Below are positions 12,159 through 60,302 of a stretch of DNA of 64,000 bases, piece by piece. The first letter of the stretch is position 1. The number at the start of each line of letters is the position of its first letter. The DNA lies in contig JAJYDJ010000002.1 of assembly GCA_021777565.1 (NCBI GenBank), forward strand, positions 69,082-133,081, written 5' to 3'. Made by a program: the position numbers and the translations under genes. Origin of the DNA: a bacterium. Lineage in GTDB: Bacteria; Patescibacteriota; Microgenomatia; Levybacterales; UBA12049. The notes under the pieces are model-generated. The model worked only from the letters and a program-made list of their open reading frames with translations, was not told where the DNA came from and did not search any database.

Positions 12159-12602
12159 ATGGAACAAACAGCAAAAGAACTTATTCAGCAATTCTTCGAC
12201 GTCCTTGACGTTAAGACAGAATTTTCTGTCACAGAGGCAGACGGAGCTATTGAAGTTGAACTTACGGGTGAAGAAAATGGCATGCTCATTGGCTATCACG
12301 GTGAGACACTTGAAGCTCTCCAAGTTTTGATTAGTCTCATGCTTGCAAAAAAGACTGGAAGTTATATGCCAGTTTCCCTTGAAGTTGGTGAATATAAGAA
12401 AAATCGTATTGAACATTTGAAAGAAATAGTTGAGAATATGAAAGCTGACGTACTCAGTCAGCATCGTGCAATTGCATTCCCAAGACTCAAGTCATGGGAA
12501 CGTCGGTTTGTACACACATACCTTAAAGATGATCCAGAAGTTGGTACCCAATCAGAAGGAGAAGGTCGTGACCGCACTCTCTCAATTTATCCAAAAGCAT
12601 AA
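12159..12602 (+). CDS. jag: Jag/KhpB-like RNA-binding protein (KH plus R3H)
   Basis: It has an R3H-like C-terminus and lies immediately after yidC. The start was chosen at MEQTAKE, directly after the yidC stop. Confidence 0.7.
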   Translation: MEQTAKELIQQFFDVLDVKTEFSVTEADGAIEVELTGEENGMLIGYHGETLEALQVLISLMLAKKTGSYMPVSLEVGEYKKNRIEHLKEIVENMKADVLSQHRAIAFPRLKSWERRFVHTYLKDDPEVGTQSEGEGRDRTLSIYPKA

Positions 12603-17712: not shown

Positions 17713-17713
17713 G

Positions 17714-41048: not shown

Positions 41049-41702
41049 ATGAAGCCACTTGTTATTATTGCGAATTGGAAATCACATAAAACGTCTGCAG
41101 AGGCACTTTCCTGGTGGCAGGTCTTTTCAGAGAAGCATCAACCAGATACGACGATAATTATTCTTGCCGTGCCTTATACACTCCTCCCTATTCTTGCGCC
41201 TGTTGTTTCCAGTCGACCCGATGTCTTTTTGGCAGCACAAGATATGTCTCCGTTTGATGAAAGTGCTCATACAGGAGAGGTGTCTGGGCAGCAAATTAAA
41301 GAATTTGCAAAATATGTCCTCATTGGCCATTCAGAAGTGAGAAAAGAGACTGGAGAAACAGTAGATATGCGCAGGCAAAAGATCCTGCAGGCTCAAGTCT
41401 CAGGGTTGACCCCTTTTGTTTTCTACGGTGGAACTGACGATACGTTATTGCAGTCGCCATTTCTTGTCTATGAACCGCCTGGTGCGATCAGTCCAAACCC
41501 TCCTGAGACACCAGAGGAGGTTGCCCGTATGACAGAGGCAATGCATCTATCATCACCCGAATCAAGGATACTCTATGGTGGTAATGTCACCCCAGAGAAT
41601 GTAAAATCTTATGTGACGCTGCCCCTTGTTGAAGGGGTTGTTATCGGGCGAGCGAGTCTGGACCCACTTGAGTTTTTGGAACTAATAGCACATGCACAAT
41701 AG
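41049..41702 (+). CDS. tpiA: Triosephosphate isomerase (short form)
   Basis: The start IIANWKSHKT, the His region VLIGHSEVR and YEPPGAI are present. Confidence 0.75.
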   Translation: MKPLVIIANWKSHKTSAEALSWWQVFSEKHQPDTTIIILAVPYTLLPILAPVVSSRPDVFLAAQDMSPFDESAHTGEVSGQQIKEFAKYVLIGHSEVRKETGETVDMRRQKILQAQVSGLTPFVFYGGTDDTLLQSPFLVYEPPGAISPNPPETPEEVARMTEAMHLSSPESRILYGGNVTPENVKSYVTLPLVEGVVIGRASLDPLEFLELIAHAQ

Positions 41703-42873
41703 ACGCAAAAGACGATGGATTCCACTTGTTGTGACACTCCTTGTTGTAGGGGTTATTGGTTATGCTCTCTTCCAGACTATCAACCACCCGGGGAAAGTTA
41801 TGCAATTGGTGACTGGGAAAAAATCACTGATTGCAGAAGTGAATGGGAGAACAAACGTGCTGCTTCTTGGAATTGGTGGAGGCAATCATGATGGTCCTAA
41901 TTTGACGGACACAATCATGTTGGCATCTCTGGACCGAGCGACAAATGATGTAACACTCGTCTCTATCCCACGTGATCTTTGGACTGTAGATAGTAATGGC
42001 AACGGAGGTAAGATCAACAGAATGTATGCGGTCGGGCAGGAAGTAGATAACCCCAAAGATGGTCTTTTTCTTGCTTCACAAACGGTTACTCAGGTGACAG
42101 GACAACCTATTCAATACGCATTTCGACTCGATTTTGATGGATTCACAAAAGTAATTAATCTCCTTGGTGGCATTGATGTACAGGTGGAGCGAACGCTTGA
42201 TGATTATGCCTACCCAATTGAAGGGAAAGAAGATGATACCTGTGGATATACGCCAGATCAACTCAAGGAATTCGCCGCTCAAATTGCCTCAGGGAGCGCA
42301 GATGATACCGCGATTTTTAGTTGCCGATACATGCATCTGCATGTTGATAAAGGGTTACAACATATGGATGGAGATCTTGCTCTTCGATTTGTCAGATCTC
42401 GACATGCTGCCGGTCCTGAAGGGACAGACTTTGCCAGAAGTCATAGGCAACAGCTTGTTATTGAAGCGGTACGAAATAAAATTTTCTCCATAGGGACTCT
42501 CACGGATATAAATAAGCTAATGGGCTTGTATAACATTGTTCAGAGCAGTATTGATACCAATATCCCACAAAATACGATCCCAGAATGGGTAGATATTCTT
42601 AGGGGTATGCAAAAGACTGCAATCCATACGGCTGTCATTGACTTTGGAGATAGTGACACCGGAAGATATGGATTGTTGGATTTGGCACCAATAGAGGCAC
42701 AATATAACTATGGATCAGTATTAATTCCTCGTCTTGGAGGTACGGATTACTCGGAGATTCATGCCTTTGTTACCTGCGAACTTGCGACTGGGAACTGCCC
42801 AATTGGGCCAACACCATTTGCAAGTCCTGAACCAACGGCAACTCCAAGTGGAACTCTAAAGCAGGCAAAGTAA
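41692..42873 (+). CDS. LytR-CpsA-Psr (LCP) family cell-wall glycopolymer ligase
   Basis: An N-terminal TM anchor is followed by LLLGIGGGNHDGPNLTDTIMLASLD...VSIPRDLW. Confidence 0.85.
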   Translation: MHNRRKRRWIPLVVTLLVVGVIGYALFQTINHPGKVMQLVTGKKSLIAEVNGRTNVLLLGIGGGNHDGPNLTDTIMLASLDRATNDVTLVSIPRDLWTVDSNGNGGKINRMYAVGQEVDNPKDGLFLASQTVTQVTGQPIQYAFRLDFDGFTKVINLLGGIDVQVERTLDDYAYPIEGKEDDTCGYTPDQLKEFAAQIASGSADDTAIFSCRYMHLHVDKGLQHMDGDLALRFVRSRHAAGPEGTDFARSHRQQLVIEAVRNKIFSIGTLTDINKLMGLYNIVQSSIDTNIPQNTIPEWVDILRGMQKTAIHTAVIDFGDSDTGRYGLLDLAPIEAQYNYGSVLIPRLGGTDYSEIHAFVTCELATGNCPIGPTPFASPEPTATPSGTLKQAK

Positions 42874-42893
42874 CTCTCCTGGATCTATTAAAA

Positions 42894-45005
42894 CTACTGT
42901 ATTTGGAAGATCTGTGTATCTTGATTGGAGTAGATGAGTGTTCCCATTTGATAGAATTTGTCTTCATTCAGATTGGTGTATTTCTTTCTTTCCAGCCCGC
43001 CAATATATATGAGGGTGACATTGTATTTTTGCATAAGAGATTTGGCAGTTGCTATATCGGTTGTCTCATAGATCGTCTGGATGTCCTGCATGCGTGGTGG
43101 GAGAGGGTTATAGCTTCCGCGCCATAACCACTCATGTACTGTCCATCCAAGTACGGTGGGCAACCCCGTATTGGCTGAAATGCGTGCATAGTTTGTATAT
43201 GAGTCACCTTGTGCCTCCAGGATAACTGGTTGTCCAGTAATGTTGTGATTTAGCCATATTACTGCTGCATAGTCTTGTGGATAGTCGTTGGCAAGATAGG
43301 TAAGTCCATACAGCCCACTGGGAGGTGTTGAAAAATTATAATATCCAGGAATTGCAAGATATGGATAAATAAGTGCAGGGGTAATAAGAATAAGGGAGGC
43401 TAAAAGAAAAGGAAGGACATAGATTCTCTTGAGTGACTTTGCAATACGAGCTATCGTATATGCGCTTGCCATACCAAAAAGCATGAAGGACTGATAGGTG
43501 AGTTTAAACATCGTGTTTGCACGGTAGTGCTCAGGGTAAATGTCTTTCATATAGAGGAATTCTGGAATGAGGACTAAAATAAAACCAACTGCAAAAAGAC
43601 AAATCACGAAGATATCAATTGGATTTTGTTGTTTTTTCTGTCTCTTCATAAAGAAAAGAAAACTGATAAACAGAATGAAAGGAATTCCCCAAAGAATAAA
43701 GAGCTGATACAGAGGGGACCTCTGGCAGTGGTTTGGCTCAAAAAGAAACGGCCCAAGGTGCCCAATATTTGTGAGGAAGGTAGGTGCACATAAGACGCCA
43801 ATGCCTGAGACAAGCTCACTCGCATTGAAAAATGCAGAAAAAGGGCGGGAGAGGATGAAAAATGTGAGTAAAGGAACACCCAAATGGATTGCCATACTCT
43901 TCCAATCATCTTTAATAAATACCAGAAGTAGGACAATCCAGAATCCAAAATAAATGAGACTATCCCATGCGTTGGTCATGTACATAATAGACAGTAAAAA
44001 GCCTAAAAATACGAGAAAATAAACATGCTGGCGTTGCAATTTTTGATTTATATAGTCTTTGACATAGATAAAGGCAAGGCCAACAAAAAGAAGTACATTT
44101 GGAATATCTAAAACATGCCCATGCAGGTCAGAAACAATAAATGAATAGATAGGGAATTCATGGATAGTATGATAAATAAAGCGTGTTGCATTTGGATACC
44201 AATAGCTATTTGGAAATGTGAATGGACTAAATACTAATTGCCACAGTGGGACTGGGTTCTCATTCGGATAGGCCACGAAAAACGCATAGAGACTGTGTAA
44301 GTTTCCTCCACAGGCGACAAGAAATCCCCCAATGAGTCCGGCAATAGTACTTGCTATCGCAAGCGAACGGGCCATGGTCTTGCCACTGAGAACAAGTCGT
44401 GTGAGATTCGTGACCAGAGAAAATGAGAGAGTAAACGTGAATGAGAAAAGAGTCGCGAGCATGAGGTTATAGGTGATGGCACTATCTAAAAATGATAGTT
44501 TTGTGATTACAGCAGTAGTGAGGTGTCCGAAATAGTAGTAATTGATTGGCAACGGTGCATACCACATGTCTTTAGGGGGAAAGTATGTCGTTCTAAGAAT
44601 GGTATTTAAGAATCCAAAGTCCATATATTTTTCTAGCCCAAAAATGTCTGGCTGGAAGCTCCTTACCTGTGCCCAAACACAAAGAAGTGCAAAAAAGAGG
44701 ATTTCCTCTCCAAGAAAAACGCGGATGTCTTTTGATGTAATACGTTTATCCCAATATAGGAGATTGATTGCAAGAAGAAAGCCCATCACGCCTATAATAG
44801 TGTAATGAGTAAACGGGAGTAGATGAAAAATTCCAAGAATAAAGACAAGAAAACTTGTTGTGGTGAGCGAAAAAACCTTTGCAAAAAGGTACCCTTTGTC
44901 AAAAAAAGAGGCAAAGACACGTGTTGTAATGGGGATGAAAATGATCCCACTGATAAAAAGCCAAAACCACCAGATAATAAGTGATTGAAAGTCAATCTGT
45001 GTCAT
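42894..45005 (-). CDS. DUF2298 / Chlor_Arch_YYY-family polytopic membrane protein (putative GT-C-like glycosyltransferase)
   Basis: There are about 20 TM helices. The conserved stretch PLPINYYYFGHL carries the eponymous YYY motif. Confidence 0.55.
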   Translation of the reverse strand: MTQIDFQSLIIWWFWLFISGIIFIPITTRVFASFFDKGYLFAKVFSLTTTSFLVFILGIFHLLPFTHYTIIGVMGFLLAINLLYWDKRITSKDIRVFLGEEILFFALLCVWAQVRSFQPDIFGLEKYMDFGFLNTILRTTYFPPKDMWYAPLPINYYYFGHLTTAVITKLSFLDSAITYNLMLATLFSFTFTLSFSLVTNLTRLVLSGKTMARSLAIASTIAGLIGGFLVACGGNLHSLYAFFVAYPNENPVPLWQLVFSPFTFPNSYWYPNATRFIYHTIHEFPIYSFIVSDLHGHVLDIPNVLLFVGLAFIYVKDYINQKLQRQHVYFLVFLGFLLSIMYMTNAWDSLIYFGFWIVLLLVFIKDDWKSMAIHLGVPLLTFFILSRPFSAFFNASELVSGIGVLCAPTFLTNIGHLGPFLFEPNHCQRSPLYQLFILWGIPFILFISFLFFMKRQKKQQNPIDIFVICLFAVGFILVLIPEFLYMKDIYPEHYRANTMFKLTYQSFMLFGMASAYTIARIAKSLKRIYVLPFLLASLILITPALIYPYLAIPGYYNFSTPPSGLYGLTYLANDYPQDYAAVIWLNHNITGQPVILEAQGDSYTNYARISANTGLPTVLGWTVHEWLWRGSYNPLPPRMQDIQTIYETTDIATAKSLMQKYNVTLIYIGGLERKKYTNLNEDKFYQMGTLIYSNQDTQIFQIQ

Positions 45006-45019
45006 AGTGATAGTATATC

Positions 45020-45565
45020 TTATCTCTTATTTGCTATATCTTGAATATCTGTTGTTGCAAAGAGATTAGGGAGTATTTTTTTATTCTCAGTATGGTTGTA
45101 CCAGAAAAAGAGCGTCTGCGGATTTTTGTGTGCCAGATAGGTTACTAGGGCAAGATCATCATCAATATACCGTTCAATTTTTTTCTTTTTTATCATCATG
45201 TCTTTAAAAAAGTGTGGTTGCTCGTTTTCGAAGTTAAAGAAAAGTTCGGTGAACACATCAGTGAGCCCATACTTTTTTGCAAGGGCATGTGTTTGACGTT
45301 TTAAAAATCCGAACCTGCTTGAGATGAGATAAAGCTCATGCTTATTCTCATTGTGCAGTTTTTGAAGAAAGGACAGGTTTCTTTTAATTGGAAGTCGAAG
45401 GAAAGGAAGGTGTAATAGTTGTCTACCTTTTTGCTCAATCTTACCTGGAATGCGATACCTGAGTGTTGTATGATCTTTCTCTTTATAAAATGTGTCAAAC
45501 ACCCATTCGGGAACTACAGGTGGATAGTGAATAATGACGTTATCCAGGTCAAATCCGAGTCTCAT
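45020..45565 (-). CDS. HAD-superfamily hydrolase (5'(3')-deoxyribonucleotidase-like)
   Basis: Motif I FDLDNV lies at the N-terminus, and a late Lys / DDD motif is present. The start was chosen at MRLGFDLDN to abut the upstream stop. Confidence 0.5.
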   Translation of the reverse strand: MRLGFDLDNVIIHYPPVVPEWVFDTFYKEKDHTTLRYRIPGKIEQKGRQLLHLPFLRLPIKRNLSFLQKLHNENKHELYLISSRFGFLKRQTHALAKKYGLTDVFTELFFNFENEQPHFFKDMMIKKKKIERYIDDDLALVTYLAHKNPQTLFFWYNHTENKKILPNLFATTDIQDIANKR

Positions 45566-46605
45566 GGTAACAATCTCTCGATCACATCGAGGATTCCGAA
45601 GTTCCATCCAACTCGATGGGTCATACCTTTCCTGTTTTTGATTTCCTCACGATGTTTGGCATACCAGTCGTATGACTCAATGAGCAAGTCTTTATCAGAT
45701 TTTTGTGCTTTCCAGCCAAGTAGCTTTTCGGCTTTTTCTGTTGAAACGTAAGAATCTACCGGTAAGGTTCTGTAGTGCCATTCTGCAATAGGAGAGAGGT
45801 TCAGTTTATCAAAGAGCGCCAATATAATCTGAGATGGCTTAACAGGGAGACCAAGTATTCTTGATTTTGATTTCGCAAATTTGATTGTGGCACCAAGGTC
45901 TTCATTCCATGTCCCAAAGTTCTTTGCACCAATATTAAATGTCTCTCCATGAACTTTTGCTGTCAGTGCTTTAAGGATTGCATCTGCAATGTCTCCAACC
46001 CAGAGAAGCTGGTATTTATTATTCCCATCGCCTAAAATGACCACTGGTTTCCCTGTATAGATGGCGTCAAACCAGATTTGAAACACACCAAGTCTCTCCA
46101 CTCCCAGAAATGTCTTTGGGCGAATGATATTACATTGCAGCCCTTCTTTTTCGTATGCACGACAAAGGTTCTCTCCTGCGATTTTAGATTCACCATAATA
46201 CCCAATTGGATCAAGTGGAGCTTCTTCAGTTTCTGGCCATACTTTTGGTACGCCATAGACGGCAGTAGAAGAGATATAAACAAGGCGCTTTATCTTTTGT
46301 TTTTTTGCTGCAAGCAATACTTTCTCAGTCCCATAAATGTTGGTGCTGAATATTTTTTCTTTGGTTCTTTGAATTGGGAGGGCTGCTGCCGCATGGACAA
46401 CATAATCAATCCCTTTCAGTGCTTTTGTGATGCTTTCTTGATCTCTTACGTCTGCTTGGACGACAGTCACTTTGTCTTTGAGATCTTCTGCGGTGAGAGG
46501 GGCTATATCATACAACGTGACATCATATCCTTGTTTGAGGGCCAGACGAGCAACGTGGCAGCCCAGGAAGCCGGTGCCGCCAGTAATCAGAAGTTTCTTC
46601 ATCAT
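45562..46605 (-). CDS. NAD-dependent nucleotide-sugar epimerase/dehydratase (extended SDR)
   Basis: LLITGGTGFLGCHVARLA and YxxxK are present. Confidence 0.85.
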   Translation of the reverse strand: MMKKLLITGGTGFLGCHVARLALKQGYDVTLYDIAPLTAEDLKDKVTVVQADVRDQESITKALKGIDYVVHAAAALPIQRTKEKIFSTNIYGTEKVLLAAKKQKIKRLVYISSTAVYGVPKVWPETEEAPLDPIGYYGESKIAGENLCRAYEKEGLQCNIIRPKTFLGVERLGVFQIWFDAIYTGKPVVILGDGNNKYQLLWVGDIADAILKALTAKVHGETFNIGAKNFGTWNEDLGATIKFAKSKSRILGLPVKPSQIILALFDKLNLSPIAEWHYRTLPVDSYVSTEKAEKLLGWKAQKSDKDLLIESYDWYAKHREEIKNRKGMTHRVGWNFGILDVIERLLP

Positions 46606-46607
46606 AC

Positions 46608-48161
46608 TTATTGTACTATCTCTCCTATTTCGAATGCAATTGATTTATTGGGGTAGTAAACAGTATGTTCTAGTTTGAAGTGGTATTGTGGATGCTTGCT
46701 CAGATAATCTGGAGTAAGTGCAAAAAGCTGTTTTGTCCCCAGAATCTGTTTGTCCTCGACCTGTCCAATACTGCATTGAGGACACCCTTGTGGCGCATAG
46801 AATTTAAGAAAAATACTAGGTGCATTGAATTCAGGCTGGAGAACAAGGTCATGATACTCATGTTGATGAGCAACAAAATACGTCATGACGTCCCTTGCTC
46901 CATATTGCCAGCCCCAGAAATCTGAAGAGTAGGCGTTATAGTGGGTAACATAGGCCTGTGTGTAGGTGAAAACTGAAAGAATAATAGCTATCCCGGTGAG
47001 AACAATAACTCCGTCTGAAAAGTATTGCCTGACTGCTTGAAGTCGTCTTATGAGGTGCACCATTCCCATTGCTGTGAGAATTTGCAAAGGAATAACCCCA
47101 ATGATCGATCGTGTTGCTTGAGGGGTGTTATCCAAGGTAAACATGCTTCCCAGGGGATACAGGAGCAGCCAAAGCAGAAGAAAGATTCCTGACTTTGTTG
47201 GTTTCCTGATTATTTCGATAACAGCCCAAAGGATAAATGGTAGTTGGATAAAAAATAGTTCTCCAAAGCCTTTTACTGAGTGCCTAGTGATAAATTGCCC
47301 TGGCATATCAATATCACCTTTGAGAAAGAGAAAGTCGGCTGAGAAATGCTGGAAATAACTTGATGCAATATGCTCAAGAGTCGTCCCTGTTGTTGGTGGA
47401 TGGGCAAAGATACTTACTTGATTCCACCTTGCCAGCCCGGAATCGGAGAAGAAATTCTGAAAGAAAGGTAAGAGTATGTACCCAAGGAGAATTGCACCAA
47501 AAATAACATGTTTGTAATGTGTACGCAGAAAGGTTCGATACATAATAAGAAGCCCTATCCCAAGTGCTGGAATAAACAGTCTTGCAGGAAAGTAACTATA
47601 GAAAGCGAGTGCAAAACAGAGAATTGAAGGGAAAAGAAATCGTATGTTTCTTTGTGCGCGCAGGAATAGATAACTTGCGAGTGTGGTGAAAAAGACATAT
47701 GGCATTAATCCTTCAAGTGCTACCCTACTAAAATGGATATCCCAGGGGGAGATAGCCAGTGAAAACATTGCTAGAAACGCTAGCATCTCTTTATTTTTGT
47801 CTGTGTGAAAAAGTTCTCTGGTTAATAAGAAAATGGCAATAAGCCCAAGCGTACCATAGAGGGCAGAAGGGAGCCTGGTGGCAAACTCGTTTAACCCGAA
47901 AACAGCAATGCTTGGGACCGTGCTGTATATTTCAATTGGGCCTTTATATTCACCAAAAGCCCTAAAGAAAACTGGGAAAACAGTACCAAACTCATCCTTC
48001 CCTTGGGTGAGGATGGTGTAGGCATTATATCCGATAGATGCTTCATCACAAAAAAACCCTGCTGGGATCGCGCCGAGTTTATAGAAACGAAGAGAAACTC
48101 CAATCAAGAGAATGCCTAAGAATATGAGGCTTGCTGCAAAGATTTGTATGTGCTTTTTCAT
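46608..48161 (-). CDS. GT-C glycosyltransferase, family 39-like (PMT_2 / ArnT-like)
   Basis: FFCDEASIGYNAY...FGEYKGPIEIY...EFATRLPSALYGTLGLIAIFLLTREL matches the PMT_2 N-terminal loop with its DE motif. Confidence 0.7.
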   Translation of the reverse strand: MKKHIQIFAASLIFLGILLIGVSLRFYKLGAIPAGFFCDEASIGYNAYTILTQGKDEFGTVFPVFFRAFGEYKGPIEIYSTVPSIAVFGLNEFATRLPSALYGTLGLIAIFLLTRELFHTDKNKEMLAFLAMFSLAISPWDIHFSRVALEGLMPYVFFTTLASYLFLRAQRNIRFLFPSILCFALAFYSYFPARLFIPALGIGLLIMYRTFLRTHYKHVIFGAILLGYILLPFFQNFFSDSGLARWNQVSIFAHPPTTGTTLEHIASSYFQHFSADFLFLKGDIDMPGQFITRHSVKGFGELFFIQLPFILWAVIEIIRKPTKSGIFLLLWLLLYPLGSMFTLDNTPQATRSIIGVIPLQILTAMGMVHLIRRLQAVRQYFSDGVIVLTGIAIILSVFTYTQAYVTHYNAYSSDFWGWQYGARDVMTYFVAHQHEYHDLVLQPEFNAPSIFLKFYAPQGCPQCSIGQVEDKQILGTKQLFALTPDYLSKHPQYHFKLEHTVYYPNKSIAFEIGEIVQ

Positions 48162-48162
48162 A

Positions 48163-49866
48163 TTAGAATCTTTTAAAAATCATTACTTTCGGATGATCGT
48201 ATACGGTAAATGATTCATCCGCACTTTGATCATAGATGGGAATATTGAGAACGGGAATAGTTGGGTATGAGCTGAACTCAGCAACTTCGTGAAACCCTAA
48301 TTCACCTGAGAATAGTTTGTGATAGTACTCGGCGGTTGTTGGATAACAACGATACGCAGGGACATTGTCACATTTCGTAAGCTTTTGTAACGGCACATAA
48401 AGCCTGTTGGAGGCGAGAATGATATAACTACTCTGTGCAACTTGTGCATTAATCTCTGTCCATTTCTGCGTACTTTCAGGATCATATAGTTTTAATGTTT
48501 GGGTTGTGTACATACTGTTATCTCCCAGTGGGAGGCTGTCATCCCAGTGTTCAACCGCAATAGTAGTGCCATGAGGGATATTGGTATAGATCCATTGGGT
48601 GGCAGTTACTCGTGTATGTGGACGGGTGTATATAGCAAAAAAGGTAATGAGCCAGAGAAGCATACTTGAAAGAAATAGTATTGTTGTTGGGATTGAAATA
48701 ATGAATTTTTCTTCGTGTAATATTTTTGCAATATCTGTGAGAATATATCCAATAAGTAGTGCAAAGAATGGGTATAGTGGCGCCATATATCTGATCCACC
48801 CTACCGCAAATTTCCCTACGACAAGAAAATAACTAATGATAAATACGGCAACGATCAGTTCTTGCGCCCAATGAAATTGTTTTTCTTTATGCCAGACTAC
48901 ACGGATGAAGGAGAGTAATCCAAACATCAAAAGAATACCCATGACAGGTCCAAGTCCCCAGAGGAAGATTTGTTTAGCTTCATAGAAGTAGGGAATGATA
49001 TGTACATATTGTAGTGTGTAGGGGAAAATGAAAGGATTATAAGTCATTGCCGATTGCTCCAGTGTTTGTGCCCAGAATGTTTTAAAATCTATAAGCGCGT
49101 AAGGTTCACATACAATAAATGTAATTCCGGTAAAAAAGACCATAAGTAATCCATCGGTAAAAAGGGATTTTATGAACTTTTTAGCATAGGGAGACCAGGT
49201 CTCAATGCGATGGGGTCTTTTTATAAATACAAGAAGAAAATCTGCAGACAAGGTCATACTCATAGCTGCAACGAGTGCAATGGCACTTGTTTTTGTGGCT
49301 AATGCAGCTCCAAAAACAATACCAATAAGTATCGCTCGTAGTGGGGTTGGTCTCTCATACCAGCGCAAAAGTAAGAAAATGGTGGCGGTCATCAGACACG
49401 TGAGTGGAATATCTACTGCATAGAAATGACTTAATTGCACTGGCAACACACTAATACAGTAGGCAAAAGCGCCTAAAAGTCCGAGGGCACTATTTTTCAA
49501 TTTTCTTCCGATGAGAAAAATAAGAAAAATGGTTACCGTATCCGCAAGGGCAGAAAGGTATCTCCCCAGTATCGTAATGCCATCATACCCTTGAAGATAT
49601 GTATTTTGGGTAAGCACACTAATACCCTTTAATGCATAGATGGGCAAGCTCCCATAGGCAAAAAAATGAGGATTGAGAGGAGAGTCAGTTGAAAGAAAGT
49701 CAGCAACAGAGAGTGGTAGCGTGAGTGGCAGCGCATAAAGGACGATTGCCCGTTCATCAGGGTGAAGGTGATAGCCACCATCCCAGTTCACATTGTACGT
49801 GCGTAAGAAAAACCCTAATGAGAGAATACAAAAAAGCAAAAAAGGTACGAGTTTTTTATGTTGCAT
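48163..49866 (-). CDS. GT-C-fold polytopic membrane glycosyltransferase candidate (HPDER motif), paralogue A
   Basis: There are about 13 TM helices. The first loop GYHLHPDERAIV and FFAYGSLPIY are shared with the next gene. Confidence 0.45.
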   Translation of the reverse strand: MQHKKLVPFLLFCILSLGFFLRTYNVNWDGGYHLHPDERAIVLYALPLTLPLSVADFLSTDSPLNPHFFAYGSLPIYALKGISVLTQNTYLQGYDGITILGRYLSALADTVTIFLIFLIGRKLKNSALGLLGAFAYCISVLPVQLSHFYAVDIPLTCLMTATIFLLLRWYERPTPLRAILIGIVFGAALATKTSAIALVAAMSMTLSADFLLVFIKRPHRIETWSPYAKKFIKSLFTDGLLMVFFTGITFIVCEPYALIDFKTFWAQTLEQSAMTYNPFIFPYTLQYVHIIPYFYEAKQIFLWGLGPVMGILLMFGLLSFIRVVWHKEKQFHWAQELIVAVFIISYFLVVGKFAVGWIRYMAPLYPFFALLIGYILTDIAKILHEEKFIISIPTTILFLSSMLLWLITFFAIYTRPHTRVTATQWIYTNIPHGTTIAVEHWDDSLPLGDNSMYTTQTLKLYDPESTQKWTEINAQVAQSSYIILASNRLYVPLQKLTKCDNVPAYRCYPTTAEYYHKLFSGELGFHEVAEFSSYPTIPVLNIPIYDQSADESFTVYDHPKVMIFKRF

Positions 49867-49871
49867 ACAAA

Positions 49872-51464
49872 TTATGTTCGTTTAAAAATAAAAACTACTG
49901 GTCTGTCAAACACGGTTGCCGTTTCTTCAAACCACAAAGGATCTCCCCAGTAGGTAAGCTTGCACAACAGGTCACAAGGAGTTTGATACACCAGGGTGAA
50001 AGCTCCGCTCGTTTCAAATAAGCTTTGATAAAGAGGAGATGTAACTGGGAAAAGCTGAGGACTTGAAAGTCGTGCCTTCATGATGCGCTGGCTTGGAAGA
50101 ATAAATACATCAGCGTTTTGAAATACACTTTTTACTTTTGCAGCTGCTGTCTGGTCTGTGTCAGCGCCATACATGTCAGGGAGTTGGATATGTGGGAAAT
50201 ACACATTAAAAGGGATAATACCTAGGTCATATGGCTCTCCCATGACGATGTTAGGATTTAAGAGATGTGTATTGGCCCATGCTGCGGCACTCACTCGTGT
50301 GTCTGGAGAGAAAAACACGGTTTTTGTATAAGCAACTGACCAAAGCATGCTCCCTGCAAGAAGAGAGAAGAGGCAGACACGCATGAGTATTTTGTGTGAA
50401 GTTGCTGACAGTGTCTGCATACACCAGGCAATAAGAAGATACATAAATGGAAGTAGTGGCATCATATACCTGGTCCATTTCACAAAAAGAAACGCATTAC
50501 TGAAAAATAAAAAGAAAATAAAACTCACAAGAAGGAGGAGACGATAGTCTGCTTTTCTCGTGCGCAGTGACCAAAAGAGGACATAAAAGAGAGAGAAAAT
50601 GCCAGCAGCATATCCAACTGGATTTAAAAGGAAGGGAAGCACATGCATGAGCTGGTAAATGCCAGGGGTGGTTTGAAGAAATCCTTGGGTGTAAAAAACA
50701 GGGAGTGTGCCTAACGCAACAGAAGACTCATAGTGAATTGAGTCAAGAAATTCCTTCGTGTCCAGAAGAACAAAAGGATTGGTAAGCGCATAGATCCCTC
50801 CACTAATGAGCAAAGTAAGAAAAAAGTGTAAGAGATGTTCTTGTTTGGGGGATGTGAAATAGCGGACTAAAAAAAGAAGGAATGGGAAGAGTAAAAAGGG
50901 CAGATATGAAACTTTTGTCCCAACCAATAATCCAAGCAGTACGGCCATCCAAAAGGTATGTTGCGCTGAGTTCTTTTTGATGCACCCAGCAAAAAAATAA
51001 AAAAACCACACCATAAGAAAGCACTGCCACATCTCAAACGTGCCGAAGTGAGCAAACTGTATGGCGCCGATACTAAATGTCCAAAGGGTAGCAGCAATAC
51101 GTGCTGCAGATATCCCCCAAAACTTCTTGCTTATAATATAAAGACTTATTAGTGTACCAATACTCAAGAGCGCTGAGATGGTTCTGAGCATAAAGAGTGC
51201 TTGGTCAAACGTAAGAGATGTCTCACGGAACTTTGCAATGGCGAGACCCAGAAAAAAAGTTATATACATTGGCATTGACCCATAGGCAAAAAAATGAGGA
51301 TTTAATTGGGTCGGGAAATTAAGCTGAGTGATACTATAAATGATATTCCTCTCGTCTGGATGAAAGAAAAAAGGTGCCCCCCATAATAAATTTACAAATG
51401 AAAGAAATGCGCAGACAATAACTAAGAGTATTATTATTTTAGAGGGCATGCTCACATGGATCAT
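49872..51464 (-). CDS. GT-C-fold polytopic membrane glycosyltransferase candidate (HPDER motif), paralogue B
   Basis: FFFHPDERNIIY and FFAYGSMPMY are present, in the same architecture as 48163..49866. Confidence 0.45.
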   Translation of the reverse strand: MIHVSMPSKIIILLVIVCAFLSFVNLLWGAPFFFHPDERNIIYSITQLNFPTQLNPHFFAYGSMPMYITFFLGLAIAKFRETSLTFDQALFMLRTISALLSIGTLISLYIISKKFWGISAARIAATLWTFSIGAIQFAHFGTFEMWQCFLMVWFFYFFAGCIKKNSAQHTFWMAVLLGLLVGTKVSYLPFLLFPFLLFLVRYFTSPKQEHLLHFFLTLLISGGIYALTNPFVLLDTKEFLDSIHYESSVALGTLPVFYTQGFLQTTPGIYQLMHVLPFLLNPVGYAAGIFSLFYVLFWSLRTRKADYRLLLLVSFIFFLFFSNAFLFVKWTRYMMPLLPFMYLLIAWCMQTLSATSHKILMRVCLFSLLAGSMLWSVAYTKTVFFSPDTRVSAAAWANTHLLNPNIVMGEPYDLGIIPFNVYFPHIQLPDMYGADTDQTAAAKVKSVFQNADVFILPSQRIMKARLSSPQLFPVTSPLYQSLFETSGAFTLVYQTPCDLLCKLTYWGDPLWFEETATVFDRPVVFIFKRT

Positions 51465-51510
51465 ATTATCTTCTATTGTACAATGTTACGCACAACAATT
51501 GAACAAAGAG

Positions 51511-52773
51511 TTATGAAGCACTTACCAACCCAGCGACCTTCTCCCCTAACTCAACAGCATAGTTAGTCCCACGATCCCATGGATATACTTGTTGCATGTT
51601 TGCAAGATAGACATGGTTGATTGGGGTTGGCAGTGGAGGAATTTGTTCTGAGTAGTGAACAGGGATGATAGGTTGTGCGAAAGGTACGGCATATGTTTTT
51701 ACGTCTATAACATTCTTCTCATACCCTGGATGAATTTTTTGGAGATATGGATCAAACTCTTTCATAAGCGCTTTCTCGGAGAGCGAGAAGTAAGGATGAT
51801 CTTTGGCAAGATAATTGCCAAGATAGACAATCGTTTCATTATTGTAGTGGCTCTTCCCCATAAAGTGGGTATGTTCAACAATTGCAAGAAGTGGGGCCTT
51901 ACTGTCACATACATTAAGCCAATAGATGTTATCAGGTAGAAAATCTTTCTTCATGCGCACAATTGCGACCAGTGCTCCCAAGGACTCAAGATTTTGCAGT
52001 TTTTTAACATATTGTGATGGCAGTTGTGGTGCCATTTTGGCAAAGACACCAGAAGGGAGTGTCACAATAACACGATCAAAAACTCCTTCTTTACCAACGG
52101 TTACTTTCCCGGCTTTCTCGGTAATGGAATCAACTGTCGTGTTGTACACAATCGTTCCTCCCTTTTGTTTAATCGTGTCAGCGAGTTTCTCGGCAAACGC
52201 TAAAAATCCGCCTTCAGGATAGGCAAGTGAGGTGGTCCTTTTTGTTACACGTGCCCAAAACCAAGCAAGAGAGATTTTGGGGACAAAAGAACGAAACTTA
52301 CCTATCAGAAGTGGTTCCCAAATCATTTTATATGCTCTTTCTCCCATGGTCATTGAAAGATATGATGCTGCTGTCACACTCTCTAGTGGTTTCCAAAATG
52401 GATTGTATCGAAGAAGGGCAAGAGAAATACCCATGCGCAGCCTGTCAAGGAGAGGGAGTTTGTTAAATGTGAGAAGCGTTAACGGGGAGTCGAGTTGCTG
52501 CATAGTGCCATTGATATATGAGGATGTATTTGGCCTTTTGATAAGAACTGGTGCACCAATCTCGTGTGCCAAATTGATAACGGCAGCATCGTTGGTGAAC
52601 CAGTGGTGATAAAAGTACTCTAACGTCCAATCCCATTCTTTCTCTTTATATCCAAGCGCAAGGCCACCAGGAGCACTGTCACGCTCAAAGATGGTAACAT
52701 TGTGTCCTTCTTGCAAGAGCTTATATGCAGCGCTTAGTCCTGTGAATCCTGCTCCGATAATGGCGATTTTCAT
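51511..52773 (-). CDS. FAD/NAD(P)-binding oxidoreductase (amine-oxidase / protoporphyrinogen-oxidase / Glf-like Rossmann family)
   Basis: MKIAIIGAGFTGLSAAYKL...TIFERDSAPGG is the dinucleotide-binding motif followed by GG. The substrate is unknown. Confidence 0.65.
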   Translation of the reverse strand: MKIAIIGAGFTGLSAAYKLLQEGHNVTIFERDSAPGGLALGYKEKEWDWTLEYFYHHWFTNDAAVINLAHEIGAPVLIKRPNTSSYINGTMQQLDSPLTLLTFNKLPLLDRLRMGISLALLRYNPFWKPLESVTAASYLSMTMGERAYKMIWEPLLIGKFRSFVPKISLAWFWARVTKRTTSLAYPEGGFLAFAEKLADTIKQKGGTIVYNTTVDSITEKAGKVTVGKEGVFDRVIVTLPSGVFAKMAPQLPSQYVKKLQNLESLGALVAIVRMKKDFLPDNIYWLNVCDSKAPLLAIVEHTHFMGKSHYNNETIVYLGNYLAKDHPYFSLSEKALMKEFDPYLQKIHPGYEKNVIDVKTYAVPFAQPIIPVHYSEQIPPLPTPINHVYLANMQQVYPWDRGTNYAVELGEKVAGLVSAS

Positions 52774-52778: not shown

Positions 52779-54149
52779 TTATAATACTGAAAACATGAAG
52801 AGTAAGCTACCAGTAATTACGACACCTACGCCAATAAGCCCAACCATGAATGTGTTTTCTGGCCCCGTGCTTGGAAGTCCTGTCGGCTTGAGTGTTGGAC
52901 TGGTACTGCGAGTTGGGCTAAGAACAATAGTTGGGGAGGTCGATGCGGCAGGTGTCGTCGTTATCGCTGCTGTTGGTACAGGCGTATCGGTTGGGGTAAG
53001 TGATGGAGCCAGGGTTGCAGACGGCGTTGCTGTTTGGTTTACCTGTGTCCCTGCGGCATACACGGTAAAGTGATTGGTGATGGCACGAATAATCCCCGAG
53101 GCATCTTTCGTAGTTATGGTAATTGTGTGGTCCCCAGGGGTAAGTTGTTGATTTGGTCGATAGCTCCAGTTTCCAAGAGCATCTGCTGAGACGGATGCAG
53201 AAATTGCTTGATCAGAGTGAATCTCAATTTGCACTGATGAGTTTGGGAGAGCAGTCCCTTTAAAGACTGGTTGTTGATCTGTATAGGTTGCATTCTCCTT
53301 AGGAGAGGTGATTTGCACGGTTATATTTGTATCGATATTGGTGACAAATTGTGGGAACTTCGCTGCAAACGCACTTGCGGCACTTGATGCAACTGGCTCA
53401 ACACTCGTTGTGAAATCATAGTTATTCCCAAGAGTTATTTGTGGGACAACGGCATTGCTAAAGTTGGTGAGTACTTGAGAAGTGCTTGTTGGTCCATAAA
53501 ATTGAAGTTGTATAGCGGAATTTGATGCTAACGGTACATATTGCGTTAAGTCGCTGGAACGCAAGGTGTTCGTTGGGATTGCATAGGTTCCGGTAGTCTT
53601 GACGAGTGTTGAAAGGATTTGCCCATTTGGGCTAGACATCAGGACGTAACTATCTGTTGGTTTTGTCCCATCTGGCAGAATGAGAGTCCCTGATACTGCT
53701 GCTTGAGTGAGTGGTTGATCAGAAATGGTTGGCCCTGTCGTCGCAGTAAATGGTGAATTCTGGTTGAGGAAGGTATTCTCGCCAGAGGTGATGGAGAAGG
53801 TATAGTGTGTTAATGGTCTGAGTCCACGTGCTGTGATACTGTGTAGCTGGTAGGAGAGCGGCTTACCTGTGGCCTGATCGCGATCATCCAGTACGACGTG
53901 GGTTGCGCCTGTTTCATCTACCAAAGAAATTGTACCTATGACTGATGCTTCAGTGCGGTAGACAACCGTAAAGCTCTCGTCGGTAACGTTGGTAACTTGA
54001 AAATCATGTGGCTGGTTGCTTGGCGCAGCTCCCGAGAAAAGCTTAACTCCTGTTTGGACCAAGAATGTTGTCCCTGCAAGGCCACCAATGATCAACAGAA
54101 GTCCCAAGAATCCTGGTATTTTTTTCTCCCACGTGCTTATTGTGCTCAT
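52779..54149 (-). CDS. Surface protein with an N-terminal signal anchor and a C-terminal LPSTG sorting-signal-like motif
   Basis: The sequence ends ...KPTGLPSTGPENTFMVGLIGVGVVITGSLLFMFSVL with no basic tail. The middle is Thr/Ser/Pro-rich. Confidence 0.55.
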   Translation of the reverse strand: MSTISTWEKKIPGFLGLLLIIGGLAGTTFLVQTGVKLFSGAAPSNQPHDFQVTNVTDESFTVVYRTEASVIGTISLVDETGATHVVLDDRDQATGKPLSYQLHSITARGLRPLTHYTFSITSGENTFLNQNSPFTATTGPTISDQPLTQAAVSGTLILPDGTKPTDSYVLMSSPNGQILSTLVKTTGTYAIPTNTLRSSDLTQYVPLASNSAIQLQFYGPTSTSQVLTNFSNAVVPQITLGNNYDFTTSVEPVASSAASAFAAKFPQFVTNIDTNITVQITSPKENATYTDQQPVFKGTALPNSSVQIEIHSDQAISASVSADALGNWSYRPNQQLTPGDHTITITTKDASGIIRAITNHFTVYAAGTQVNQTATPSATLAPSLTPTDTPVPTAAITTTPAASTSPTIVLSPTRSTSPTLKPTGLPSTGPENTFMVGLIGVGVVITGSLLFMFSVL

Positions 54150-54493
54150 TATTTTGTCCCTCCTGGCGTTGGTGTTGCGGATGAAGTTGACAGTGGTGTT
54201 GGCGTAGCAGAAACACTTGCAATAAAAACAAGTACGGGGGTTGGGGTTGGCACTGCTGTGGGTGCCGCGGCAGTAGTTGGCGCTACGAGTATTTGTATTG
54301 GTGTTACTGCGAGCCTGCTAGAAAGCGTATTCATGGTTTTGGTATCAAAAGTTCCGTTGATTGGGATAACTTGTTCATTGACTGTTTCACTAATAGTTGA
54401 TGTAGTAAGGCGTTGCATAATACTGAAAATAATCCATGCTATAACTAGTATAACGGTCGCTGCAAGGACAAAGATAAGATCATTTCGTTTCAT
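54149..54493 (-). CDS. Small bitopic membrane protein with a Pro/Thr/Ala-rich tail
   Basis: It has an N-terminal TM helix and lies downstream of the pilO-like gene. Confidence 0.35.
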   Translation of the reverse strand: MKRNDLIFVLAATVILVIAWIIFSIMQRLTTSTISETVNEQVIPINGTFDTKTMNTLSSRLAVTPIQILVAPTTAAAPTAVPTPTPVLVFIASVSATPTPLSTSSATPTPGGTK

Positions 54494-55104
54494 AAACTTT
54501 TTTGTGCGTACGCTCTTCCTTTTATTGTAGCGCGAAAATTCCCTTTTGGTTGTGAGGAGAAAGAAAGGCTATCGATAGTGATCACTCGAGAGAGGTTAGT
54601 CATGTCTTTCATAAAAAGAATAGTACTTGGATAGGTCCCTTCCACGTTCATGCTAAATACAAATGAGAGTGGCTTATCATTCTGAGATTGAGAGAATTCA
54701 ACTGGGAAGATTTGTAGATACGTGAGAGAGATATTATCTCTTTTTGCCAGCCCTTGTAATAGTCCGGCAACACCTAACGTATCAGGGGAGTCAGGGATTG
54801 CCTGAAGAGCGAGAGGGAGACTAGTTTGGATAGTTGGATAGGCTTTTTGGAGGGAAAAAATGGATGCGATCTTGGTATCAAGTTGCTGGCTCACTGTTTG
54901 CTCATCACTTAATTGTTTTTGCAGTTCAGCAATAGTAGATAGGGTTGGGTTAATTGCAAAAAGTCCGAAGCCAGCACATGCCACGAGGGTAAAGGCGAGT
55001 GTAGTAAATTTACCGACTCTTTCTTCACCAAATTTTGGAATAATTCTCCCAACCAGCGCACCGGCTGGGATCCTATTAAATACAGATGACGTATTTGTGC
55101 TCAT
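54490..55104 (-). CDS. PilO-like type IV pilus assembly protein
   Basis: It has an N-terminal TM helix, then a coiled coil (ELQKQLSDEQTVSQQLDTK), then a C-terminal domain. The size and topology fit PilO. Confidence 0.45.
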   Translation of the reverse strand: MSTNTSSVFNRIPAGALVGRIIPKFGEERVGKFTTLAFTLVACAGFGLFAINPTLSTIAELQKQLSDEQTVSQQLDTKIASIFSLQKAYPTIQTSLPLALQAIPDSPDTLGVAGLLQGLAKRDNISLTYLQIFPVEFSQSQNDKPLSFVFSMNVEGTYPSTILFMKDMTNLSRVITIDSLSFSSQPKGNFRATIKGRAYAQKSL

Positions 55105-55652
55105 AAAATTGGTGCAATATTTTTTTGTGTAAGAGAAACAACTACGTTAACAATCCCAAGAGAGGGCTTATCGTCAATTTTATCAACACTTGTTGTCATC
55201 GTATCTGTTAAGTTACGCAGTTTATCGACAAATTGAGAGGCGCTTATCGCAGAGGTAAATTGCACATCTATACGGGTTGTCCCACCGGTCATGCTTAAGC
55301 TGTTGAGTGTAGCTGATTCCGGGATTGCCTGTAAAATTGCCTGTATTCGACTTTGCATTTGTGTATTCACTCCTTCAGCTTTTTGGATAAGCTGGAGACG
55401 GGTCTGAACATTGCGATATTTCTGCTCTTGTTGATTCATTGCAGCAACCAATGCCAATTTTTGCTTTACCTGGTCCTTGGTATCGACAATTTGTTTATCA
55501 AGGCTAAATCGATACCCAAATGCAACCAGTGCAACCAGTTCGGTTAGGACAACAAGTACTCTTCCAATAGTGACAGCCCACGCTAAGGTTTTATCAATAA
55601 GTTGGATTTTTCTTCCACGATATAAATTTACCTGGTTTTCAGGGTTTGGCAT
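55101..55652 (-). CDS. PilN-like type IV pilus assembly protein
   Basis: A short cytoplasmic N-terminus (VNLYRGRK, INLLP-like) is followed by a TM helix and a coiled coil. Confidence 0.45.
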   Translation of the reverse strand: MPNPENQVNLYRGRKIQLIDKTLAWAVTIGRVLVVLTELVALVAFGYRFSLDKQIVDTKDQVKQKLALVAAMNQQEQKYRNVQTRLQLIQKAEGVNTQMQSRIQAILQAIPESATLNSLSMTGGTTRIDVQFTSAISASQFVDKLRNLTDTMTTSVDKIDDKPSLGIVNVVVSLTQKNIAPIL

Positions 55653-55702
55653 ATATTTAGTCTACGTGGTGGGAAATATATTGTCAAAAGAAGAGGAGGA
55701 TA

Positions 55703-59433: not shown

Positions 59434-60302
59434 AGCGCTAAAAGAAGAATACCTCCAACTGTTATAAGTGCTCCGACAATTCCAGTTCCAATAATAATCT
59501 CAGATGGTCCGGTACTCGGAAGTTGTTTGGTCCCTGTTGGAGACGGGGTTGCAACTGATTTTGTCGGTGTCGCTGACGTCGACGAGGATGGCGTAACGGT
59601 TACACCACCGCCAGTACCACCACCAGTACCTCCACCCGTTCCTCCGCCACCGCTTGTGGGTTGTGTTGGGACTGGTGTCTCAGTTGGTGTTGGTGCACCG
59701 GTTGGTCCTGGTGTCGGAGTTGGGACAGGGAGAATTGTAATGCTTGCATCATTTGCACTAGCGAGTACATTCTCTGCAGGTTGATCAGAACTTGCGATAG
59801 AGAGAATTTGGGTATTACTCTGATCAAATCGCAGAATTGGTGTGAGATTAGTATCTGTTGGCGAGGCTGCGGTGAAGTTAAGGTTGCCAATCAGGATCTG
59901 ACTTGAACCAGTGAGTGGTCGTCCGGTTGCGCCGATAGACATAGTGACCTTTACTTCACAGATATTTGACTGGCATGAGACCGTTGGGCCATCAAGAGTG
60001 GTAGGAAGTTGTGCTTGATAATCCGTCAAGACTGATGCAGAACTTGCTACCGATAGCTTGTCACTATCATAGGTAATGCCTAATCGAACAAAAGAAACAA
60101 CGTTGTTGTTTGGCGTTACATAGATCCCTACACGCACAGTATCACCCACATAAAACTGCTTCGTTAGTCCAAAAGAGAGAGTAGTAGATTTGGCAGCACC
60201 AATTTGACGCGACGTCTGTTGTTGCAAGAACATAATAGTGACGGGGACGGCAAGAAGTACTAGGAGGAATCCACCAAGCAAAAATAGTCTACCACGTGAC
60301 AT
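59430..60302 (-). CDS. Surface protein with a Gly/Thr-rich repeat and a C-terminal LPSTG sorting-signal-like motif
   Basis: The sequence ends ...KQLPSTGPSEIIIGTGIVGALITVGGILLLAL. A (GGGT)n tract is present. Confidence 0.55.
   Translation of the reverse strand: MSRGRLFLLGGFLLVLLAVPVTIMFLQQQTSRQIGAAKSTTLSFGLTKQFYVGDTVRVGIYVTPNNNVVSFVRLGITYDSDKLSVASSASVLTDYQAQLPTTLDGPTVSCQSNICEVKVTMSIGATGRPLTGSSQILIGNLNFTAASPTDTNLTPILRFDQSNTQILSIASSDQPAENVLASANDASITILPVPTPTPGPTGAPTPTETPVPTQPTSGGGGTGGGTGGGTGGGVTVTPSSSTSATPTKSVATPSPTGTKQLPSTGPSEIIIGTGIVGALITVGGILLLAL

Follow-up and report, generated by a model that had tools for sequence, protein, structure and literature searches.

Genes of the operon and its convergent neighbor

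The stretch of DNA analyzed here, referred to as the window (64,000 nucleotides of contig JAJYDJ010000002.1, assembly GCA_021777565.1), comes from an uncultured member of the Levybacterales within the Patescibacteria, a bacterium with a very small genome, and carries a cluster of genes for predicted surface glycosylation. A preliminary description had reported eight consecutive genes at 41692 to 52773, designated here g1 to g8 in order of position, and had assigned them as an LCP ligase (g1), a DUF2298/YYY protein (g2), a haloacid dehalogenase (HAD)-type protein (g3), an epimerase (g4), a GT-C glycosyltransferase resembling protein mannosyltransferases (PMT; g5), two GT-C paralogs with an HPDER motif (g6 and g7) and an FAD oxidoreductase (g8). 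All eight open reading frames (ORFs) were intact at exactly those coordinates, and all eight family assignments were confirmed. The extent of the locus had been drawn too short, as the operon begins four genes further upstream and g1 lies outside it. The operon consists of 11 minus-strand genes that run from 55652 to 42894, in the order pilN-like, pilO-like, a gene for a 114-aa Pro/Thr-rich protein, a gene for a 456-aa LPXTG protein, g8, g7, g6, g5, g4, g3 and g2, with intergenic gaps of at most 46 nt or overlaps of 1 to 4 nt. A promoter-like site (TTGACA-17-TAGACT; 55659 to 55687, minus strand; 10 of 12 positions matched in a consensus scan) lies between rpsT and the first operon gene. It is only suggestive, because promoter and terminator scans of the region gave site counts no higher than in shuffled sequences.

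The window was compared with 80 genome loci, obtained by a genome scan with the DUF2298 alignment, and 80 metagenome loci, obtained with the HAD alignment; pooled counts are given over 83 or 163 loci. The locus and homolog searches covered the closest 80 to 120 matches each, all of them from Patescibacteria.

Three of the operon genes encode GT-C proteins of the PMT_2 type. The g5 product (517 aa; 46608 to 48161, minus strand, as for all operon genes below) is ArnT/PMT-like, matches PMT_2 at 43.3 bits (cut-off 26.1) and has a CDE motif in its first loop. The g6 product (567 aa; 48163 to 49866) matches the same family at 47.1 bits. The g7 product (530 aa; 49872 to 51464) scores 21.5 bits, below the cut-off, and was assigned as a full-length paralog of g6 (BLASTP, 1e-29). 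Both paralogs contain the motifs HPDER and NPHFFAYGS, and residues P36, D37, E38 and R39 are invariant in a 32-member alignment of the g6/g7 family. The HPDER motif was found in 69 of 82 related ORFs, and in 25 of 30 g7-like ORFs. Single-protein sequence searches of the PDB with g2, g5 and g6 gave nothing useful, and profiles and a fold search were used instead. The g5 family profile matched the ArnT structure 5ezm at 2.7e-5, the best PDB match of the g6 family profile was yeast Pmt2 (E = 0.01), and alignment of the g6/g7 family with the g5 family by hhalign (99.6%, E = 4.5e-25) placed HPDER opposite the DE of g5. These results indicated that the polytopic proteins are GT-C enzymes and not transporters, since the g5 profile matches ArnT, g6 and g7 are homologous to g5, and the g2 model described below matches GT-C folds. 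The catalytic Asp/Glu that the preliminary description had expected in the first periplasmic loop is represented by a DE pair in the first loop of g5, g6 and g7, a loop that is probably extracytoplasmic. Prediction of transmembrane (TM) segments indicated that g2, g5, g6 and g7 are polytopic and that g3, g4 and g8 lack a TM segment.

The last gene of the operon, g2 (703 aa; 42894 to 45005), encodes a full member of DUF2298 (PF10060, 316 bits, 5e-94) and of TIGR03662 (500 bits, cut-off 300). Its motif INYYYFGH includes Y156, Y157, G160 and H161, which are invariant among homologs, and the protein keeps many invariant acidic and His residues, as is typical of a catalytic site. An AlphaFold2 model (pLDDT 81.7, pTM 0.87) consists of about 12 TM helices followed by a C-terminal alpha/beta domain. 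When this model was searched with Foldseek, the top 21 PDB matches were all GT-C proteins (E 1e-6 to 6e-2), namely STT3 (1.2e-6), AglB, DPY19, AftA, PglB, ArnT, Pmt4 and EmbB, with STT3 and AglB first, and the C-terminal domain alone matched the globular domain of AglB-S2. At the sequence level no link with GT-C enzymes was detected, as there was neither an STT3 Pfam match nor a PDB match, and hhalign against the g5 family was not significant. The conserved C-terminal motif is GWTVHEWLWRG. Because the sequence-level link and the WWDYG motif are both missing, g2 was assigned a GT-C fold with an oligosaccharyltransferase-like layout and was not classed as an oligosaccharyltransferase. A second, divergent DUF2298 paralog (28 to 31% identical to g2) lies right after the FAD gene and before a methyltransferase gene in two loci (match starts L062:3562 and L063:2108); because these paralogs follow the FAD gene, DUF2298-type enzymes can also be members of the variable gene set described below.

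The g8 gene (420 aa; 51511 to 52773) encodes a cytoplasmic FAD oxidoreductase of the PRK07233 family (Amino_oxidase PF01593, 2e-31; NF005560, 401 bits, cut-off 252). Its fold is of the amine-oxidase/CrtI type. Its nearest named relatives are the isoprenoid desaturases HpnE, CrtI and CrtD, and the best PDB profile matches were PF1083, amine oxidases and gamma-carotene desaturase. Two candidate functions were rejected. A DprE1-type decaprenylphosphoribose oxidase would have the vanillyl-alcohol oxidase (VAO)-type FAD_binding_4 fold, not the amine-oxidase fold of g8, and matches to UDP-galactopyranose mutase covered only about residues 2 to 104, with no GLF Pfam match. Two independent observations tie the g8 family to lipid-linked sugar metabolism. 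The first is a homolog of 62% identity in a separate glycan locus (L086) with the order GT2-SDR-FAD-SDR-GT4-GT4-acetyltransferase-GT2-…-PMT_2, where SDR denotes a short-chain dehydrogenase/reductase. The second is a 1447-aa metagenome protein (P0511) that joins GtrA_DPMS_TM, an FAD domain and two GT2 domains, the first of them DPM1-like, in one polypeptide, the FAD domain being 36% identical to g8 over its full length. In another protein, P0380, the FAD domain is fused to an S-adenosylmethionine-dependent methyltransferase.

The two remaining soluble proteins are encoded by g4 and g3. The g4 product (347 aa; 45562 to 46605) is a cytoplasmic extended SDR, an NAD-dependent sugar epimerase/dehydratase (PF01370, 165.6 bits, 2e-48), with the motifs TGxxGxxG (ITGGTGFLG) and YxxxK (YYGESK); no NCBIfam equivalog reached its cut-off. 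The g3 ORF (195 aa; 45020 to 45607) most likely starts at M15 (position 45565), in agreement with an independent gene call, which gives a protein of 181 aa (45020 to 45565) and a 4-nt overlap with g4. It had no match in Pfam or NCBIfam, and a PDB profile search returned nothing. Its HAD label was confirmed by conserved motifs and predicted structure. In HAD motifs I to IV, FDLD (D6, D8), K121 and DDD (D135-137) are invariant among relatives, and S82 reaches at least 90% conservation in one alignment and is invariant in a second. The top 50 PDB fold matches of the AlphaFold2 model (pLDDT 91.8) were all HAD-superfamily proteins or a HAD-scaffold design, and most were phosphatases. Weak matches to Acid_phosphat_B and HAD_2 were found in 7 and 5 of 26 relatives, respectively. 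The family comprises about 1,180 stand-alone proteins of about 180 aa, all annotated as hypothetical and lacking a Pfam or NCBIfam model.

The four genes at the head of the operon encode membrane and surface proteins. The pilN-like gene (183 aa; 55101 to 55652; PilN, 17.6 bits, below cut-off) and the pilO-like gene (204 aa; 54490 to 55104; PilO PF04350, 31.4 bits, cut-off 22) each encode a bitopic protein with one TM segment. The former overlaps the next gene by 4 nt and keeps its position in 41 of 83 loci, and the latter is syntenic in 43 of 83. Next is a small membrane-anchored protein of 114 aa (54149 to 54493) at a conserved position, a candidate acceptor whose Pro/Thr/Ser-rich tail reaches 60% Ser/Thr/Pro in its richest 40-aa window. 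The second candidate acceptor, a surface protein of 456 aa (52779 to 54149; Big_13, 3e-10; NCBIfam sortase-dependent surface protein match at residues 399 to 452), consists of an N-terminal TM segment, fn3-like and Big_13 Ig-like domains, a Ser/Thr/Pro-rich stalk, an LPSTG motif and a C-terminal TM segment. All of its Big_13 homologs have a stalk and then a C-terminal TM segment, and an LPxTG-like motif was matched in about half. In diderm type IV pilus operons the gene order is pilN-pilO-pilP-pilQ, and the operon head (52779 to 55652), with its pilN-like, pilO-like, small Pro/Thr-rich and large beta-rich wall-anchored proteins, resembles this order. By analogy, it may be a monoderm module for pilus alignment or passage through the wall.

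The convergent neighbor of the operon, g1 (393 aa; 41692 to 42873, plus strand), encodes an LCP phosphotransferase (PF03816, 108.9 bits, cut-off 24.6, 3e-31; TIGR00350, 90.9 bits, cut-off 62.3) with Lmo1026, Cps2A and TagU/V/T as PDB relatives. Its stretches IPRD, VRSRH and RSHRQQ align with Lmo1026 at the level of stretches rather than of individual catalytic arginines. The start of g1 overlaps the stop of tpiA by 11 nt. Because g1 lies on the opposite strand, overlaps tpiA and is convergent on g2, it was assigned to a separate tpiA-lcp transcription unit, and it is a neighbor, not a demonstrated member, of the glycosylation system. The pairing of tpiA (217 aa, short for its family) with the LCP gene (41049 to 42873, plus strand) was retained in 66 of 83 loci, an odd conserved pairing with a housekeeping gene.

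Conservation of the operon and its variable cassette

The genes are co-conserved in relatives, as the preliminary description had proposed, and the same operon order recurs across the 80 genome and 80 metagenome loci, with more than 100 Patescibacteria loci carrying the unit. The backbone reads LepA-MurJ-rpsT-pilN-pilO-small-Big_13-FAD-[cassette]-DUF2298-LCP (opposite strand)-tpiA-uvrD-femAB, where the cassette denotes the genes between FAD and DUF2298. Genome loci with g2 homologs (at least 80) were mostly labeled Levybacteria/Levyibacteriota of the Microgenomates group, and a framing of the locus by comparison with Saccharibacteria was not borne out. The relatives are distant. LepA, UvrD and MurJ in these loci are only about 58 to 60% identical to those of the window, and none of the 80 nearest GTDB species representatives (L004 to L083) exceeds about 60% identity to the window in its housekeeping proteins, although gene order is conserved across more than 20 kb. 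Since synteny extends into the housekeeping genes tpiA, uvrD and femAB, co-location is weak evidence by itself.

Several loci retain parts of the operon in a changed setting. In L090, the genes from pilN through DUF2298 are kept with both flanks changed, between EF-G/GH18 and a gene for a type IV secretion system (T4SS) pilin. The cassette and DUF2298 are kept in L039, L048, L052 and L068, from which LCP and tpiA are lost. LCP and tpiA are also lost in L022, where pilB and pilC directly precede the GT-C cassette, and L075 has a reduced FAD-GT-C-DUF2298 trio in a foreign context, with UppS (6249 to 6998) divergent from the FAD gene. Thus, the FAD-to-DUF2298 block occurs without LCP wherever the right flank differs in these seven loci (L039, L048, L052, L068, L022, L075 and L090). 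Within the block, g8 is the best conserved gene, with homologs that are 58 to 68% identical, and it is present whatever the cassette type. The HAD gene is directly upstream of DUF2298 wherever the sequence suffices, except in L171, in which an additional g3 copy in inverted orientation lies between the two. Of the 64 metagenome loci that were informative on the gene directly upstream of HAD, 38 have an SDR gene there, and a GT4 gene takes this place in 12 loci. Surface-protein genes head the operon wherever the full backbone was seen.

The cassette was typed in the 53 loci in which it is complete. A GT-C pair with SDR and HAD, the type of the window, was found in 23 loci, and a type built on another 540-aa membrane protein (F19-type) in 14. 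A single GT-C gene was present in 8 loci, HAD without SDR in 6, and no cassette gene at all in 2 (L033 and L082), where the Big_13 gene directly abuts DUF2298. The exact cassette order of the window recurs in L010, L083 and L035. The nearest neighbor by UvrD carried a different cassette type in 18 of 47 cases. Cassettes of other relatives include GT4, GT87-like and PMT_2-like enzymes and methyltransferases. A 232-aa GT2 protein that resembles polyprenyl-phosphate-sugar synthases (matches to ArnC, AglJ and a Dol-P-hexose transferase) is encoded in 4 loci (one at L068:5950-6648). A UbiA-family gene was found only in L025 (3955 to 4827) of the 163 loci, flanked immediately by GT-C genes on one side and by the HAD gene on the other, with decaprenyl-phosphate phosphoribosyltransferases as its best NCBIfam match (59 bits, below cut-off). 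In this variability, the cassette behaves like a serotype-type glycan island. The structure of the glycan would then differ between lineages, because the enzyme set between g8 and g2 is exchangeable.

Proposed pathway and alternative explanations

The families and folds of the components, their predicted soluble or membrane character, the operon layout, its conservation, the variability of the cassette and the association of the g8 family with modules for lipid-linked sugars were directly supported by the comparisons above. From these, we give an even chance to the reading that the 11-gene operon carries out glycosylation on the outward side of the membrane from polyprenyl-phosphate-linked sugars, with the co-encoded surface proteins more probable acceptors than an LCP-attached wall polymer. 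The type of donor, the acceptor, the directions of the reactions and the roles of g8, g4 and g3 are what we infer in the following scheme. The cytoplasmic g8, g4 and g3, which lack signal peptides, would make or tailor a polyprenyl-phosphate-monosaccharide donor or its precursor, and the polyprenyl-phosphate-sugar synthase, of GT2 or UbiA type, would be encoded elsewhere in the genome. The donor would then be flipped, and g5, g6 and g7, together with the oligosaccharyltransferase-like g2, would carry out the sugar transfer at the external membrane surface. The likeliest acceptors would be the Ser/Thr/Pro-rich regions of the LPXTG Big_13 protein and the 114-aa protein. Surface proteins are favored as acceptors because their genes head the operon, because the Big_13 gene abuts DUF2298 in the empty-cassette loci, and because the enzymes are PMT- and oligosaccharyltransferase-like.

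Other observations weigh against this reading. Glycosylation of the two candidate acceptors is suggested by genomic context, and Pro/Thr-rich wall-spanning stalks are common in LPXTG proteins that are not glycosylated. The GT-C block lacks a Big_13 gene directly upstream in L022, L068 and L075. The TM-scores of the g2 fold matches are only about 0.4, and the assignment of g2 as a true oligosaccharyltransferase was rejected for want of an STT3 match and the WWDYG motif. A donor synthase (GT2 or UbiA), a GtrA or MATE flippase and a sortase were not found in the window or in the 10 kb past either end, and the glycosylation pathway is therefore incomplete as read. Part of the co-location in the operon may also reflect the inertia of gene order within the clade.

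The preliminary description had proposed glycosylation by GT-C enzymes followed by LCP-mediated attachment to peptidoglycan. Applied to the operon, this model has GT-C enzymes that build or extend a lipid-carried glycopolymer outside the membrane and g1 that ligates it to peptidoglycan, as Emb/Aft and Lcp1 do for mycobacterial arabinogalactan. It draws on real features of the locus: g1 is a bona fide LCP protein whose Arg-containing motifs align with Lmo1026, Cps2A and TagU, it adjoins DUF2298 in 68 of 83 genome loci, and the envelope genes femAB and murJ, the latter of the MOP superfamily and present as described, lie nearby. A locus that brings a phosphatase together with an FAD enzyme, an SDR and multiple GT-C enzymes also resembles the logic of the decaprenyl-phosphate-arabinose pathway (PMC11127046). 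The orientation of g1, its overlap with tpiA and the survival of the FAD-to-DUF2298 block without LCP argue against the end-step, and g8 is not of the DprE1 type with its VAO fold.

The supply of a substrate for LCP poses a further difficulty. The substrates of LCP enzymes are polymers linked to polyprenyl diphosphate, which need a phosphoglycosyl transferase, cytoplasmic glycosyltransferases and a flippase or exporter. As the preliminary description had stated, the window contains no GT-A or GT-B enzyme and no Wzx or ABC exporter; among ORFs of at least 150 aa, these and an initiating phosphoglycosyl transferase were absent from the window and from the 10 kb past either end, about 84 kb in all. 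MurJ is the housekeeping lipid II flippase. A pathway built from GT-C enzymes that feeds LCP is therefore not sustained, as the initiating enzyme and flippase it needs are missing over this distance. Thus, the part of the earlier proposal that concerns GT-C glycosylation was retained and the LCP end-step was not, and we consider the wall polymer unlikely. Of its two suggestions, a wall glycopolymer and protein O-glycosylation, the second is favored, because the operon head holds the pilN/pilO-like genes and two genes for Ser/Thr/Pro-rich surface proteins.

A variant of protein O-glycosylation in the style of Archaea and eukaryotes was judged rather improbable. Here, DUF2298 would be a protein-directed transferase for wall-anchored proteins, and the PRK07233 flavoenzyme would act on the lipid-linked donor, by oxidation of the polyprenyl-phosphate sugar or saturation of the carrier. 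The flavoenzyme may thus perform DprE1-like chemistry on another fold or a polyprenyl-to-dolichol-like saturation. We found no archaeal or bacterial enzyme for the latter step in a 2026 review (PMC13586052).

Two further models have a slim likelihood each. In the first, a glycan on a lipid-diphosphate carrier would be moved by LCP onto the LPXTG protein before sortase anchoring. It has an experimental precedent in Actinomyces oris, where LcpA glycosylates GspA (PMC6381275), and the locus does combine an LPXTG protein with a Ser/Thr/Pro stalk, an adjacent LCP gene and glycan enzymes. Like the wall-polymer model, it lacks an initiating enzyme and an exporter over the 84 kb or so covered. The LCP gene belongs to another transcription unit, synteny persists without it, and there is no sortase in the window.

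The second model is a pentofuranose version, in which g3 would be a phosphoribose phosphatase and g4 an epimerase that acts on polyprenyl-phosphate-ribofuranose, made from phosphoribosyl pyrophosphate by a UbiA-type enzyme, and a GT-C enzyme would add ribofuranose, xylofuranose or arabinofuranose, as do Citrobacter GT136 and TfpW. A known pentofuranose system likewise uses a GT-C enzyme, with HAD represented by a phosphatase domain and SDR by a GalE-like epimerase (PMC11127046), and the UbiA-family gene of L025 sits at the fitting position between GT-C genes and HAD. Such a UbiA neighbor was present in only 1 of 163 loci, did not recur in the 80 metagenome loci and was found neither in the window nor close to it. 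Partners of the GT2 or GT4 type are commoner, g3 has no detectable sequence similarity to named HAD families, and no MATE flippase was found in the window or within 10 kb.

Least probable of all is a translocase model, in which g5, perhaps with g2, would move lipid-linked sugars rather than transfer them, as proposed for archaeal Agl23 (TIGR03663). Purified Agl23 is reported to flip lipid-linked oligosaccharide in vitro (PMC11182771), g5 aligns with TIGR03663/Agl23 weakly over its full length, and the locus contains no other flippase. Yet g5, at 38.9 bits, falls short of the TIGR03663 cut-off of 126.25 and was not accepted as Agl23; it keeps its DE motif and belongs to a family that matches ArnT, a true transferase, and g2 retains many invariant acidic and His residues.

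Other genes of the window and relation to known systems

Further envelope and housekeeping genes were recorded elsewhere in the window. A T4SS-like set (several T4SS_pilin genes along with genes for a TraC-like protein and an ATPase of the TraG/VirB4 type; 1085 to 8028, plus strand, and 8009 to 12157) lies beside dnaN, dnaA, rpmH, rnpA, yidD and yidC, a neighborhood that marks the replication-origin region. It is followed by a gene for a Wzy_C/O-antigen-ligase-like membrane protein (12466 to 13785, plus strand; 28.9 bits, below cut-off) and one for an 887-aa DUF4012 protein (14221 to 16884, plus strand), with an RNase H-like ORF between the two; these correspond to the DUF4012/O-antigen-ligase-like pair of the preliminary description. 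A second LPXTG-anchored protein (59430 to 60302, minus strand; Gram_pos_anchor, 20.7 bits) is encoded between lepA and groES/groEL. Searches of the window for GtrA, GT2 and UbiA by tblastn gave spurious matches only, such as one at 63666 to 63845 within a soluble queuosine-salvage gene, and two unannotated ORFs considered as UbiA (162 to 1079 and 16885 to 17787) lack UbiA motifs.

Almost nothing is known of the surface glycans of Patescibacteria (Candidate Phyla Radiation), whose surfaces mediate host attachment and phage exposure. As a defined locus that is widely conserved and varies in its cassette, the operon is a candidate for this surface chemistry. Through it, DUF2298/TIGR03662, PRK07233 flavoenzymes and a HAD-fold family that has no Pfam model are placed in a functional context for the first time, and the fusion of a flavoenzyme with GtrA and GT2 leads to the testable hypothesis of a new step in lipid-linked sugar metabolism. 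Literature searches found no published work relevant to DUF2298, TIGR03662/TIGR03663, Saccharibacteria GT-C enzymes, Patescibacteria LCP proteins or the operon.

The proposed pathway resembles three-component systems (GtrA/GtrB/Gtr*, ArnC/ArnEF/ArnT and PPPRS-MATE-GT136; PMC11127046) in its use of GT-C enzymes on polyprenyl-phosphate monosaccharides and of HAD and GalE-like SDR helpers. It differs from them in that the operon has no donor synthase or small flippase, has four GT-C genes and an FAD enzyme of another fold, and would serve an acceptor other than lipopolysaccharide. Mycobacterial and corynebacterial arabinan assembly (Rv3806c, Rv3807c, DprE1/DprE2, Emb/Aft and Lcp1) likewise draws on a phosphatase and a flavoenzyme together with an SDR, multiple GT-C enzymes and an LCP neighbor, and the fold matches of g2 include AftA and EmbB. 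In contrast, g8 is of the amine-oxidase/CrtI type and not of the VAO type, g4 is an extended and not a classical SDR, UbiA is missing, and LCP is not co-transcribed.

TfpW of Pseudomonas aeruginosa is a GT-C enzyme that arabinosylates pilin Ser/Thr and whose gene lies beside a pilus-protein gene, with donor-tailoring redox enzymes (bioRxiv 10.1101/2020.04.19.049825). The pilN/pilO-like genes at the operon head, and pilB and pilC before the cassette in L022, recall this arrangement, although no pilin gene was recognized in the operon, where an Ig-like protein with an LPXTG motif is the candidate acceptor. STT3, AglB and PglB gave the best fold matches of g2, which shares with them a polytopic GT-C core and has a C-terminal globular domain that resembles the one in AglB; g2 differs in the absence of WWDYG and of sequence similarity, and the TM-scores are low, as given above. 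According to the TIGRFAMs family description, TIGR03662 and TIGR03663 (Agl23) occur as pairs in Chloroflexi and Archaea. The g2 protein, a full TIGR03662 member beside PMT-like GT-C proteins, is reminiscent of such pairs, but g5 falls below the TIGR03663 cut-off, and the Patescibacteria operon adds surface proteins, FAD, SDR and HAD. As with LcpA and GspA of Actinomyces oris (PMC6381275), an LCP enzyme, an LPXTG surface protein and glycan genes occur together, except that g1 is linked to the operon by adjacency alone. The system is thus not categorically new, because all of its parts come from known superfamilies and its logic is that of known GT-C systems.

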